Virus record (IMG/VR): IMGVR_UViG_3300050029_000044
Span: 1-29,923 of that record
Length of the DNA stretch: 29,923 nucleotides
From: a virus
Strand: one strand, 5' to 3'
Shown here: in pieces, positions 851 to 5,880 of the stretch
Position numbering within the stretch: position 1 is the stretch's first letter
Layout of the letters: each line of letters opens with the position of its first letter
Made by a program: the position numbers and the translations under genes
The notes under the pieces: generated by a model
Databases searched by the model: none
What the model was told of the DNA's origin: nothing
What the model saw: the letters and a program-made list of their open reading frames with translations, nothing else

Positions 851-1258
851 TTGCTACTGGTGCTGTTTGGCATAGCGACTTTCATAGGATTACTTACGCC
901 CCTAAAAATTTATAGTGATTTTGCTCCGGCAATGCAACCCTTAACGGCTATCAACGTCCTTTCGGATTCTTCCTCAATCAGTATGATAAAATTGGCTATT
1001 AGTGAAACTGCTATTAAATATGGAATTGAAAAAAGTGAACTTATGCAAGTCATTGAATGTGAATCGGGTTTTAAAGTTAAAGTAAAAGGAGATAGCGGAA
1101 AGGCATACGGACTTCTACAATTTCATAAACCAACATTTAAGGGATTTTGTAAAGGTGATTATTATTCTCCAAAAGACCAACTTGAATGTGCCGGACAGAT
1201 GTTCCAAACTCCTAAATTGAAACTTCATTGGACTTGTTTCAAGAAAATAAAGTTATGA
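851..1258 (+). CDS. Lytic transglycosylase (SLT/lysozyme-like fold) with an N-terminal signal-anchor. Start uncertain: TTG at 851, or ATG at 822 plus a -1 shift.
   Basis: Motif VIECESGFK...GDSGKAYGLLQF matches the catalytic Glu-Ser region of SLT domains. N-terminal hydrophobic LLVLFGIATFIGLL. Confidence 0.75.
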   Translation: MLLVLFGIATFIGLLTPLKIYSDFAPAMQPLTAINVLSDSSSISMIKLAISETAIKYGIEKSELMQVIECESGFKVKVKGDSGKAYGLLQFHKPTFKGFCKGDYYSPKDQLECAGQMFQTPKLKLHWTCFKKIKL

Positions 1259-1890: not shown

Positions 1891-2685
1891 ATGGCACAAA
1901 AAAATCTTGGTATTCAAGACGGAAGTAATGATAGAAGATATTTTACCATTATTCCAAACTTTACATTAAATCATTCTACTTTATGGGACAGGGAAGTTTA
2001 TGTACAGATGAAACGAATAGCCGGGGAAGATGGAACTTGTTGGACTTCGCAAAAAACTCTTTCCAAACAATGCGGAATGAGTATAAACCGATTAAAGAAA
2101 AGTTTATCATATCTTGTAGAGCATAAATGGATAAAATTTATAGGCACGAAAAAGGTAGGAACTACGGGAGGAAATCAAGAAGTTAATGAATATCGTATAT
2201 GCGATTTATGGAAAATAAACACAGATTATTATCAGGACAAAGGGGTATCACTAGAAGACATACCTTTATCAAAAGGGGTATCACCAAATGAGCAGAAGGG
2301 GTATCACGAAAACACAAAAGGGGTATCACCAGGTGACGACAAAGAAGAACCCATTAAGAATATCACTATTAAAGAAGATACAAAAGTTGAAACTTTTGGG
2401 AAAGAAGTAAATGATATTATAGAATTATTTAAGGATATAAATCCTTCTTATAGAGAATTATATAAAAGGAAAAATCAGCGAGATGCGGTGCATAGATTAT
2501 TATTGGCTATTGGAGAGGAAAAAGTCCGGTCAGCGATAAGTTATTTGCCTCAAACTAATTCTATGCCTTTTAGCCCGACAATTACTACGCCGATTCAATT
2601 AGAAGAAAAAATAGGAACTTTGAGGGCATTTGTCCAAAAAGAAATAATTAGGAAAAATAATAGTAAAGTAATTATAATAAAATGA
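1891..2685 (+). CDS. Replication initiator-like protein: N-terminal winged helix-turn-helix, repeat-containing linker, C-terminal helical domain.
   Basis: YFTIIPNFTLNH...TSQKTLSKQCGMSINRLKKSLSYLVEHKWIK resembles wHTH phage/plasmid initiators. Four iterons lie in its linker. ORF track starts at TTG 1876; ATG 1891 is preferred. Confidence 0.55.
   Translation: MAQKNLGIQDGSNDRRYFTIIPNFTLNHSTLWDREVYVQMKRIAGEDGTCWTSQKTLSKQCGMSINRLKKSLSYLVEHKWIKFIGTKKVGTTGGNQEVNEYRICDLWKINTDYYQDKGVSLEDIPLSKGVSPNEQKGYHENTKGVSPGDDKEEPIKNITIKEDTKVETFGKEVNDIIELFKDINPSYRELYKRKNQRDAVHRLLLAIGEEKVRSAISYLPQTNSMPFSPTITTPIQLEEKIGTLRAFVQKEIIRKNNSKVIIIK
2240..2329 (+). repeat. Four direct 12-bp iterons AAGGGGTATCAC inside the initiator gene. 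Candidate replication origin.
   Basis: Exact copies at 2240, 2273, 2296 and 2318 (spacings 33, 23, 22 bp), followed by an AT-rich stretch to about 2460. Confidence 0.55.
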
Positions 2686-3972: not shown

Positions 3973-4303
3973 AACTCCAAAACAGAATAAGGCATTATGG
4001 GTGTATTTTGAAAATATTGCAGAAACTCTAAACGAAGCCGGACTTGACCAAAGAGTAGTTTTGAAACCAAGTATACAGATAAGTTGGACTAAACAGGCAA
4101 TTCACGACTACCTTTGGTGTCCGGTGCAGGAAGCGTACATCAAAGAACATAGCACAACCAAGTTAAGCACCAAAGACATAGATAAGATTTACGACTTCCT
4201 TAATAGGCATCTCAGCGAGAAATTCGGAGTATTAGTAGATTTTCCTTCATTAGAAAAATCATTTTTAGAACAAACTTATGGGAGAAATAGAAATCATAAT
4301 TAG
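3962..4303 (+). CDS. NinB/Orf-like recombination mediator (113 aa).
   Basis: RTPKQNKALWVYFENIA resembles the lambda NinB RSLDQNRKLWACLGDVS segment. STTKLSTKDIDKIYDFL parallels NinB STSRMRVGEFAELLELI. Compared from memory. Confidence 0.5.
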   Translation: MAVRTPKQNKALWVYFENIAETLNEAGLDQRVVLKPSIQISWTKQAIHDYLWCPVQEAYIKEHSTTKLSTKDIDKIYDFLNRHLSEKFGVLVDFPSLEKSFLEQTYGRNRNHN

Positions 4304-4604
4304 AAAACCAATATACAACAACTTTGTATATATTAGGGCCGAGAAAGTAGAACTGGCCCGGGCAAGGAAGTGGAACTTAAAGATTACTACCCCGGCAGGA
4401 TCTGGTACATACACCGCAGACGAGTGGATCAAAGGAAGTAAGACAATGGATAAGGTGTTTCTCCGCCCAGACGAACCAATGCGCCTTATCGGAAACAACC
4501 TAATTGTCGGGCATACCCCGGAACTTAAAGGCAAAGCAAAGAAAATAGCAGATGCCTGGAGCAAATATAATTCATTAACACCCGAACAACGGGCAAAAGT
4601 ATGA
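4278..4604 (+). CDS. Hypothetical protein (108 aa).
   Basis: ORF track. Overlaps the upstream gene by 26 nt. Confidence 0.55.
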   Translation: MGEIEIIIRKPIYNNFVYIRAEKVELARARKWNLKITTPAGSGTYTADEWIKGSKTMDKVFLRPDEPMRLIGNNLIVGHTPELKGKAKKIADAWSKYNSLTPEQRAKV

Positions 4605-5049: not shown

Positions 5050-5099
5050 CCTCCCCCCAACCCCACCTTGGGATTTGTTGGAGAAATTAGAGAAATAAT
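5050..5099 (+). repeat. 50-bp intergenic direct repeat, copy 1.
   Basis: cctccccccaac + 4 variable nt + an identical 34-mer ccttgggatttgttggagaaattagagaaataat (5066-5099). Contains a cccaa/ttggg stem. Confidence 0.9.
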
Positions 5100-5146: not shown

Positions 5147-5533
5147 ATGACAGCAAAAAACGAAATCGTAATTAACGGCATAAAGTATCTCCCAGAAAGT
5201 GAATTAAAAGCAACTGAAACAGTAAAATCAGTTAAAGGATTAACATATTGCATTGTCAGGACATATTCAGCAGGTGTTTGGGCTGGCTGGGTGGATTTGA
5301 AAAACTATGGAGAAAAAATGTTTGTGACCGATGCTCGCAGATTATGGAGGTGGTGGAGTGAATTTACTTTATCGGCGTTAGCTACTACTGGATTTAAAGA
5401 CGGTAAAGAAAGTGAAAACAAATATGCTATGCCTGTTGAGAAAGTATATTTAACTGGTGTGATTGAGATAATCCCTTGCACTGAAATCGCCAAACAGCAA
5501 ATAGTAAAACAGCCAAATTATAAGGAAAATTAA
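5147..5533 (+). CDS. Conserved-looking phage protein of unknown function (128 aa).
   Basis: IVRTYSAGVWAGW...ARRLWRWWSEFTLSALATTG resembles a widespread uncharacterised phage family. This is from memory and unverified. Confidence 0.6.
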   Translation: MTAKNEIVINGIKYLPESELKATETVKSVKGLTYCIVRTYSAGVWAGWVDLKNYGEKMFVTDARRLWRWWSEFTLSALATTGFKDGKESENKYAMPVEKVYLTGVIEIIPCTEIAKQQIVKQPNYKEN

Positions 5534-5534
5534 A

Positions 5535-5828
5535 ATGAAATCAATTCTTTTAAAAAATAAATTCAGTATTGATAACTTAGACGGCAACGGCAACGGCAAC
5601 GGCGACGGCAACGGCAACGGCAACGGCAACGGCTACGGCAACGGCTACGGCAACGGCTACGGCAACGGCGACGGCAACGGCAACGGCTACGGCAACGGCT
5701 ACGGCAACGGCAACGGCAACGGCTACGGCTACGGCAACGGCAACGGCTACGGCAACGGCGACGGCAACGGCAACGGCTACGGCAACGGCTACGGCAACGG
5801 CAACGGCAACGGCGACGGCTACGGCTAA
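5535..5828 (+). CDS. 97-aa protein: a 15-aa N-terminal segment followed by 41 Gly-X dipeptides (X = Asn 25, Tyr 11, Asp 5).
   Basis: AAGGAAA lies 7 nt upstream. The start abuts the upstream stop. The ORF ends exactly where the repeat array ends. Confidence 0.6.
   Translation: MKSILLKNKFSIDNLDGNGNGNGDGNGNGNGNGYGNGYGNGYGNGDGNGNGYGNGYGNGNGNGYGYGNGNGYGNGDGNGNGYGNGYGNGNGNGDGYG
5580..5825 (+). repeat. Tandem array of 41 hexanucleotides NAC-GGC (N = A, T or G, never C), with a 90-bp higher-order repeat.
   Basis: Read directly. A 57-nt block starting at 5667 recurs at 5757. This is a GC-rich island in an AT-rich genome. Confidence 0.95.
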
Positions 5829-5830
5829 CC

Positions 5831-5880
5831 CCTCCCCCCAACTCTTCCTTGGGATTTGTTGGAGAAATTAGAGAAATAAT
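5831..5880 (+). repeat. 50-bp intergenic direct repeat, copy 2.
   Basis: Identical to 5050-5099 except for 3 substitutions in the hairpin loop (cccac versus tcttc). Confidence 0.9.

Follow-up and report, generated by a model that had tools for sequence, protein, structure and literature searches.

Why should a viral genome of low GC content contain a short open reading frame (ORF) written almost entirely as a perfect GC-rich hexanucleotide array, and does the array matter as protein, as nucleic acid or not at all? We addressed this question in a stretch of 29,923 nucleotides of viral DNA (IMG/VR record IMGVR_UViG_3300050029_000044, positions 1 to 29,923), referred to here as the window. The ORF is a translated phage gene, consisting of a 15-codon leader followed by 41 dipeptide units, and it belongs to a large family that almost always lies directly behind one small partner gene, DUF6948, in viruses of bacteria and archaea. 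No paper describing this module was found. The features of the locus are listed in table 1.

Table 1. Features of the repeat locus and its surroundings in the window.
Position	Strand	Feature	Details
5050..5099	+	Left copy of a 50-nt direct repeat	Contains the weak stem-loop CCCAA..TTGGG followed by ATTTGTTGGA
5147..5533	+	Partner gene, DUF6948 (PF22253)	128 aa; predicted small beta-barrel; Pfam E = 4.5e-21
5522..5537	+	Gene junction	AAGGAAA purine-rich stretch (5522-5528), partner stop TAA (5531-5533), one base, then ATG (5535-5537)
5535..5828	+	Array ORF	Leader, array and stop codon
5535..5579	+	15-codon leader	MKSILLKNKFSIDNL
5580..5825	+	Array of 41 x NAC-GGC	(D/N/Y-Gly)41; 25 AAC, 11 TAC, 5 GAC
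5647..5813	+	Internal block duplication	77-nt exact repeat, 5647-5723 = 5737-5813, offset 90 nt
5826..5828	+	Stop codon TAA	Directly after the last Gly codon
5831..5880	+	Right copy of the 50-nt direct repeat	2 nt after the array ORF stop; terminator-like

The repeat and its reading frame

The sequence features of the original prediction are confirmed, with one small correction: the order of the dipeptide is X-Gly, beginning with Asp and ending with Gly, and not Gly-X. The array shows no other deviation from the NACGGC unit, is 68.7% GC and contains only 11 T, while the window as a whole is 36.7% GC. Its codons are atypical for this genome; in 30 other ORFs of the window GGC accounts for 9% of Gly codons, with AAC at 36%, TAC at 26% and GAC at 35%, and if codons were drawn independently an all-GGC/NAC array would have log10 P = -63.5. 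The higher-order repeat is also real, but is longer than the 57-nt block originally noted, since 12 identical units recur at an offset of 15 units (shuffle P = 0.003-0.011), and it is a footprint of multi-unit duplication.

The single variable base of the unit is a wobble position in two other frames, encoding (Thr-Ala)41 on the + strand and (Ala-Val)41 on the - strand, which had not been noted previously. It is very unlikely that either is the real product: neither frame has a start codon, the + frame has a stop directly upstream, and in arrays built from other codon classes these frames encode different dipeptides, for example Met/Leu-Ala for NAT-GGC, such that nothing is conserved there. 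By contrast, translation in the X-Gly frame is intended, as originally proposed. The leader, the frame and the stop directly after the last unit are kept in close relatives, the leader being MKSIIIKNLFSI in L121, MKSIIIKKLFSI in L176, MKSIILKKVFSI in L182 and MESILLSNKFSIENK in P0068, with the stop directly after the last Gly codon in L121, L176 and L182; unit number changes only by whole units (41, 31, 40, 34, 25). Across the family, 53 of 113 array ORFs end on the last Gly.

An assembly artefact or chimera is equally improbable. Repeats are hard to assemble, many related contigs end inside arrays and P0068 is visibly chimeric after its array, but the window reads through the array into unique sequence on both sides, and the same architecture occurs in hundreds of independent contigs and in finished genomes of cultured phages.

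A partner gene upstream of the array

The decisive context, which the original prediction missed, is the gene immediately upstream. Starting from arrays, the DUF6948 gene is the immediate upstream neighbour in 61 loci, and no other neighbour recurs. Starting from DUF6948 alone, an (X-Gly)n array lies downstream in 71/72 viral and 62/65 cellular loci (133 of 137, or 97% of those sampled), including cultured Pectobacterium, Ralstonia and Iodobacter phages, with hosts extending to CPR bacteria and archaeal MAGs. The partner family comprises about 2,280 clusters at 50% identity. The repeat gene is often unannotated, as in PhiPLPE, or misnamed, such that gene callers and low-complexity filters hide it. 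Arrays usually start 2-50 nt after the partner's stop codon, and the stop and start often overlap, which suggests coupled translation. At homologous junctions in other phages the ATG lies 13 nt before the partner stop, inside its conserved (I/V)-W codons and after a GGGGTG/GAGGTG stretch. A programmed frameshift joining DUF6948 to the array was considered, because most arrays lie in the -1 frame just after the stop, but is disfavoured by this conserved ATG with its upstream purine-rich stretch, and by the window, which uses the +1 frame with its own ATG. A natural in-frame fusion does exist (P0280), and phrog_18306, of unknown function, matches both a Gly-rich stretch and the DUF6948 domain. 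However, (X-Gly)n tracts also occur without DUF6948, fused to other domains for which Pfam and PHROGs searches gave only DUF7666 and PHROGs of unknown function; the tract may therefore be a generic module rather than a dedicated partner.

The partner protein was modelled with AlphaFold2 (AF2) as a small beta-barrel with a pLDDT of 88.4. Its best PDB fold matches are all Sm/LSm proteins, but the similarity is weak (Foldseek E = 4e-3 to 5e-2, TM 0.35-0.62), sequence and profile searches against PDB sequences found nothing, and small beta-barrels are easily confused with each other. The AF2 model of the array protein has a pLDDT of 41 and no secondary structure, although low pLDDT from a single sequence is weak evidence of disorder. 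Searches of both proteins against Pfam, PHROGs, NCBIfam and PADLOC gave only DUF6948 and sub-threshold low-complexity matches (TrAA12, serine-rich protein, phrog_18306), while a BLAST search of the 6-kb region against GenBank phages found only methyltransferase similarity, the array presumably having been masked.

The evidence does not support a ribosomally made, post-translationally modified peptide (RiPP), with the array as core peptide, as originally suggested, and DUF6948 as a recognition or processing protein. Such a reading would be consistent with a small ORF directly behind a conserved small protein, with a leader that is conserved among close relatives while the 'core' varies, and with the many ORFs that end exactly on Gly. 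Yet the typical leader of the family is only about 5 aa (M-E/G-x-V/I-x), the 15 aa of the window being longer than the family mode, and the leader does not fit the LSxxELxxIxGG pattern of double-glycine bacteriocins. No radical-SAM, YcaO, lanthipeptide, protease or transporter gene is detectable in the window, DUF6948 has no enzyme match, and in-frame fusions with globular domains exist. We therefore regard this reading as improbable.

Homogenisation and variation of the repeat tract

The same protein pattern is written elsewhere with different codons. Each array uses almost one codon set, but the set differs between arrays (GGC+NAC, GGC+NAT, GGT, GGA, GGG), with six codon classes in use, and AT-rich genomes write the pattern with GGA/GGT and NAT codons. 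Of 105 arrays of at least 15 units, 70 have at least 95% one Gly codon and one X third base and 52 are perfect, with a median of 4 hexamer types per 29 units. The partner gene differs between the window and L121 at 40 of 108 same-residue codons, yet the array has no synonymous change. Four contigs, L181-L184, share the leader of the window and have an 86%-identical partner protein, but use GGG in every unit; they are identical over 1,229 of 1,229 flanking nt while their arrays have 19, 34 and at least 21 units in different order. The evidence for such hypervariability comes from short-read metagenome assemblies, which can mis-assemble repeats. Together these observations fit growth, shrinkage and homogenisation of the tract by duplication or slippage of hexanucleotide units and multi-unit blocks, which erases synonymous variation and keeps only a few amino-acid-changing unit types, with selection acting on the protein pattern: strict alternation with glycine, and X restricted to Tyr, Asp, Ser or Asn. 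Codons one mutation away from the common ones (His, Thr, Ala, Cys, Phe, Val, Ile) are each under 1% of X.

These data bear on several of the proposed roles. A DNA- or RNA-level element, such as a G-quadruplex, a protein-binding hexamer array or a recombination hot spot with an incidental ORF, could account for the perfect periodicity and the lack of synonymous variation, and the GGG-type relatives, (GGGNAC)n, would fit a G3N3 quadruplex pattern. In addition, GGC is used in 54 of 70 homogeneous arrays (77%), even in genomes of 33-51% GC, which protein-level selection does not explain. Nevertheless, the only feature shared by the six codon classes is the encoded X-Gly pattern, X is filtered against its single-mutation neighbours, start codon, frame and stop are conserved, the array in the window has only G2 runs, most codon classes would not qualify as a canonical G-quadruplex motif, and there is no Rfam match (a tRNA scan of the window was likewise empty); this reading is very unlikely.

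The suggestion that the array is slippage-prone is supported by the variation between near-identical genomes. A classical contingency locus that switches expression on and off is, however, very unlikely, since the unit is 6 nt and slippage never breaks the frame; all complete relatives remain in frame with the stop at or near the array end, only the length and order of residues vary, and no natural variants with frame-breaking lengths were seen. The array resembles the variable regions of diversity-generating retroelements in that variation is focused on the first base of AAC-type codons and the third position never varies. Here, however, the second A never varies, neither a reverse transcriptase nor a template repeat was found in the window, and X across the family is restricted to Y/D/S/N rather than the 15 residues that AAC mutagenesis would give; this hypothesis was rejected.

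Possible roles of the gene pair

A disordered Gly/Tyr-rich low-complexity protein, as originally proposed, is the most reasonable physical description of the product. Across the family X is 35% Ser, 28% Tyr, 22% Asp and 7% Asn, about 31% of X is aromatic and not clustered, and the median net charge is -8, with 96% of members net negative. The rarity of Asn means that an Asn-Gly deamidation timer is not supported. The protein of the window is atypical, being 61% Asn with a net charge of only -3, and a charge-based mechanism would be weaker here. In the absence of experiments bearing on function, our best guess, held with moderate confidence, is that the product is an intrinsically disordered 'sticker-and-spacer' polypeptide, with Tyr as stickers, Gly as spacers and usually Asp for charge, which is made in step with the partner through coupled translation and works with its small, Sm-like predicted beta-barrel. 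It may act as a tail encoded in trans that gives multivalent weak binding or self-association, or that regulates a nucleic-acid or protein-binding surface in the infected cell; only composition and length, and not the exact sequence, would matter.

A more speculative and doubtful extension is that the Sm-like barrel uses this separately encoded, rapidly evolving polypeptide to build an RNA-protein assembly or condensate in the infected cell, or to trap a host factor in one. The pair would then be an obligate two-component module and a viral, split-gene counterpart of eukaryotic Sm/LSm proteins with low-complexity tails.

Alternatively, the acidic, Tyr-rich polypeptide, alone or presented by DUF6948, might be an anti-defence or host-takeover decoy that mimics nucleic acid or a host substrate and blocks a host protein, its fast turnover reflecting an arms race. 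The cassette does sit in variable accessory positions: in the early/replication region of the window, next to a tail fibre gene in Ymer, after small terminase in NK-7 and at the genome end in PhiPLPE. The acidity of the family and the hypervariability of the array would also be in keeping with such a role. However, there is no match to PADLOC or any annotated anti-defence family, the protein of the window is barely acidic, and the occurrence of the module in phages of very different hosts, including archaeal MAGs, argues for a general rather than a defence-specific target. This reading appears unlikely, but is compatible with our preferred explanation rather than exclusive of it.

The homologue in Ralstonia phage NK-7 is annotated 'fibroin heavy chain-like protein'. 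Like silk fibroin heavy chain (GAGAGS/GAGAGY), the tract alternates Gly with Ser and Tyr, and both are coding minisatellites that evolve by unequal recombination. The tract has no Ala, however, is rich in Asp/Asn and strongly acidic, and is about 100 times shorter; the name reflects compositional similarity, not homology.

Finally, the two-gene cassette in the window is bracketed by the direct repeat listed in table 1. The two copies are identical at 47/50 positions, and their 18-nt core occurs exactly twice in the window, against 0.03 occurrences expected by chance.

The dipeptide array and its genomic setting

The window carries an ORF that consists of a short leader followed by a perfect array of dipeptides (outlined in the table). 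The array has no deviation from its hexanucleotide unit other than the single variable base, and the order of residues is X-Gly, beginning with Asp and ending with Gly, rather than Gly-X as given in the original prediction. The array is much richer in GC than the window, which is 36.7% GC. In 30 other ORFs of the window, GGC accounts for 9% of Gly codons, and AAC, TAC and GAC for 36%, 26% and 35%, respectively; under independent codon choice the all-GGC/NAC state has log10 P = -63.5. The array also contains an internal repeat that exceeds shuffles of the unit order (P = 0.003-0.011), and a TAA stop codon follows the last GGC directly. A point missed in the original prediction is that the only variable base is a wobble position in two other frames, which read as perfect (Thr-Ala)41 on the + strand and (Ala-Val)41 on the - strand. 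Neither frame has a start codon and neither is conserved in arrays of other codon classes, and a product of an alternative frame is disfavoured.

Coordinates of features in the window and of array ORFs in other sequences
Sequence	Feature	Coordinates	Strand	Details
Window	ORF	5535-5828	+	MKSILLKNKFSIDNL followed by 41 dipeptides
Window	Array	5580-5825		41 copies of NACGGC (25 AAC, 11 TAC, 5 GAC); 68.7% GC, 11 T
Window	Internal repeat	5647-5723, recurring at 5737-5813		77-nt exact copy, offset of 90 nt
Window	DUF6948 gene	5147-5533		128-aa protein
Window	Stop of the upstream gene	5531-5533
Window	AAGGAAA	5522-5528
Window	ATG of the ORF	5535
Window	50-nt direct repeat	5050-5099 and 5831-5880		47/50 identical
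Window	23-nt tandem repeat	2270-2331		2.7 copies, CAAAAGGGGTATCACCAAAACAG
Window	ORF containing the 23-nt tandem repeat	1876-2685
Contig L176	Two array genes in tandem	551-829 and 855-1085		92 and 76 aa
Iodobacter phage PhiPLPE (NC_011142)	Complete array ORF	about 1172-1413 of the locus		MSRLVNNKNGDGSGYGDG...SGSG; between gp84 and gp83
Contig L122	Called array ORF	4001-4369

The window is a tailed-phage genome, encoding a replication initiator or DnaD-like loader, NinG/Rap, two DNA methyltransferases and an HNH endonuclease, followed by large terminase, major head and tail genes. The methyltransferase region has weak DNA similarity to Cellulophaga and Polaribacter phages. No reverse transcriptase, peptide-modifying enzyme, tRNA or Rfam family was detected in the window. 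The array gene lies in the early/accessory block, directly after the DUF6948 gene, and the two genes together are bracketed exactly by a 50-nt direct repeat. This repeat contains a weak stem-loop (CCCAA..TTGGG) followed by ATTTGTTGGAGAAATTAGAGAAATAAT, and could be a repeated terminator or regulatory element, or a footprint of cassette insertion. A 23-nt tandem repeat lies elsewhere in the window, inside another ORF. One or more of the scanned window ORFs match replication-initiator/DnaD-like families, and if this ORF is the one, the repeats could be origin iterons inside the initiator gene, as in lambdoid phages.

Codon usage and turnover of the arrays

The array is a protein-level feature, not a DNA motif. 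A scan for (GGC-DAC)5 hit at least 120 viral contigs and, in nearly all of these, the X-Gly frame is an ORF with a short N-terminus. Arrays found through protein similarity in AT-rich contigs use GGA/GGT and NAT codons, with synonymous variation. A codon-neutral scan, (GGN-DAY)7, showed that each array is internally almost homogeneous, but that different arrays use different synonymous sets: GGC+NAC, GGC+NAT, GGA+NAT, GGG+NAC, GGT+NAC and others. In a sample found only through the partner gene, 70 of 105 arrays of at least 15 units have at least 95% one Gly codon and one X third base, and 52 of these are perfect; the median is four hexamer types per 29 units. The classes are GGC+T (29), GGC+C (25), GGT+C (8), GGA+T (4), GGG+C (3) and GGA+C (1), while GGT+T and GGG+T were not seen. 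GGC is the Gly codon in 54 of 70 homogeneous arrays, even in genomes of 33-51% GC, a bias that protein-level selection does not explain.

The only feature shared by these arrays is the encoded pattern. The other frames encode different things in different classes, and a DNA or RNA element is contradicted by the codon classes. In addition, X is strongly filtered. In a pooled sample Y, D, S (mostly TCC) and N make up 95%, whereas His, Thr, Ala, Cys, Phe, Val and Ile, which are each one mutation away from common codons, are each under 1%.

Comparison of close relatives reveals concerted evolution of the tract. Contig L121 encodes a partner protein that is 89% identical to that of the window, and 40 of 108 same-residue codons in the partner gene differ synonymously. 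Both arrays are nevertheless 100% NAC-GGC, with 41 and 31 units and a different order of N/Y/D; both end with TAA immediately after the last GGC and the leader is conserved. Contigs encoding an identical partner protein (P0085, 90% identical to that of the window) carry a 92-aa array ORF, a 76-aa array ORF or both in tandem, all with the same leader. In L176, and also in L177, the two tandem array genes lie behind one DUF6948 gene and have the same leader MKSIIIKKLFSID, while the related contig L178 has only the 76-aa copy; this suggests gene-level duplication or loss through the repeated leaders. Contigs with partner protein P0087 (86% identical) have the same leader, but every Gly codon in the array is GGG, which represents a wholesale synonymous switch. 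The resulting (GGGNAC)n would fit a canonical G3N3 quadruplex pattern on the coding strand.

Four of these GGG-type contigs (L181-L184), which come from different samples, are identical at 1,229 of 1,229 flanking positions, yet their arrays differ in length (19, 34 and at least 21 units) and in order. Short-read assemblies can mis-assemble repeats and the rate of variation is accordingly uncertain; an assembly artefact was considered as an explanation for the array itself and is disfavoured. The pattern is the signature of repeated duplication or loss of units and blocks that homogenises the tract, with selection retaining a few amino-acid-changing unit types. Arrays in other frames or with frame-breaking lengths, which the original prediction had proposed would point to a DNA-level element, were not found, and on/off phase variation is excluded because the unit is in frame. 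In L122, a contig of 25.7% GC, the called array ORF runs through an in-frame TGA, and this may be a TGA-recoded genome (genetic code 4 or a recoded phage).

Association of the array with DUF6948

A neighbourhood census over 165 array loci found one protein cluster, which includes the DUF6948 gene of the window and is the immediate upstream same-strand neighbour in 61 loci; no other neighbour recurs. In the reciprocal analysis, starting from DUF6948, 71 of 72 viral loci and 62 of 65 loci in bacterial and archaeal genomes or MAGs have an (X-Gly)n array of at least 6 units downstream, mostly 2-50 nt after the stop. The few exceptions mostly carry a degenerate G/Y/S/D-rich ORF. Hosts include Oscillospiraceae, Moraxella, Pectobacterium, Desulfovibrio, Saccharibacteria, Kuenenia, Simkania and Woesearchaeota, and the partner family has about 2,280 clusters at 50% identity.

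In most loci the array ORF starts at an ATG 13 nt before the stop of the partner gene. This ATG is formed by the conserved (I/V)-W codons (xxA TGG) and is preceded by GGGGTG/GAGGTG, a typical arrangement for translational coupling that leaves a leader of about 5 aa. The window lineage is a variant, in which the ATG lies one base after the stop and the leader is 12-15 aa. Given that the typical leader is about 5 aa and that no modifying enzyme is present, a RiPP precursor is unlikely. A natural in-frame fusion exists (protein P0280), and phrog_18306, of unknown function, matches both a Gly-rich stretch and the DUF6948 domain. A further DUF6948 protein, P0229, is fused to a (Met/Leu-Gly)n tail (GMGMGMGLGLGMGLG...), a different residue set at X that could also be a frame error in that contig.

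Cultured phages also carry the cassette. Both genes are annotated as 'hypothetical' in Pectobacterium phage Ymer, the array gene of Ralstonia phage NK-7 is named 'fibroin heavy chain-like protein', and in Iodobacter phage PhiPLPE the array ORF is present in the RefSeq record but is not annotated. No paper was found that describes DUF6948, these repeat proteins or the pairing, and all family libraries list both genes as unknown. Low-complexity Gly-rich proteins and slippage-driven coding repeats are already known, but the near-obligate pairing with a specific, predicted barrel protein across phages of bacteria and archaea, and the wholesale codon switching, appear to be undescribed.

Predicted properties of the two proteins

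The AF2 model of the array protein has a pLDDT of 41 and no secondary structure. Across 113 partner-linked ORFs the median is 24 units (range 8-71), and 53 ORFs end exactly on the last Gly. X is S 35%, Y 28%, D 22%, N 7% and F 4%; aromatics are about 31% of X and are not clustered. Net charge has a median of -8 and 96% of ORFs are negative. The protein of the window is atypical in being Asn-rich with a net charge of -3. Since Asn is rare in the family, a deamidation timer, one of the roles suggested in the original prediction, does not fit. By contrast, DUF6948 gives a confident model (pLDDT 88.4) of a small beta-barrel with two helices. All of its top PDB matches are Sm/LSm proteins, but these are weak (E = 4e-3 to 5e-2). 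The viral library returns only DUF6948 proteins and weak Sm-like hits, and sequence searches against the PDB are empty.

Taken together, this is a translated gene and the second half of a conserved two-gene cassette, arranged in a manner typical of translational coupling, in which selection acts on alternation with Gly and on a Y/D/S/N composition, and in which the tract turns over by unit and block duplication. We infer that the product is a disordered, multivalent, usually acidic polypeptide that acts with the predicted barrel protein as a tail encoded in trans, a proposal that as a whole is about as likely as not and is less certain in its details. It may be analogous to small nucleic-acid-binding barrels or RRMs with Gly/Tyr-rich or RG tails, as appear to occur among Sm/LSm, FUS/hnRNP and glycine-rich RNA-binding proteins. 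An anti-defence decoy or mimic is compatible with the evidence but remains an untested possibility.

(X-Gly)n tracts are also found fused to other unknown globular domains. Examples are DUF7666 + tract (+ a C-terminal domain with '..YFYDWHHRLTGSC..'), a '..GAC.DGV..' N-terminal domain + tract, and tract + a '..IAYW.S...G.P.NGG..' domain. The tract therefore behaves as a portable module among phage proteins of unknown function. A subfamily of stand-alone array proteins has conserved ends, with an N-terminal M..(F/Y)xP(V/I)G and a C-terminal T(V/I)S...RRR basic tail. Finally, one structural-region ORF among the large ORFs after 13 kb in the window has a weak match to the collagen triple-helix repeat (PF01391, E = 3e-4); it is probably a tail fibre with Gly-X-Y repeats, and is a second, unrelated glycine-periodic coding repeat in the same genome.
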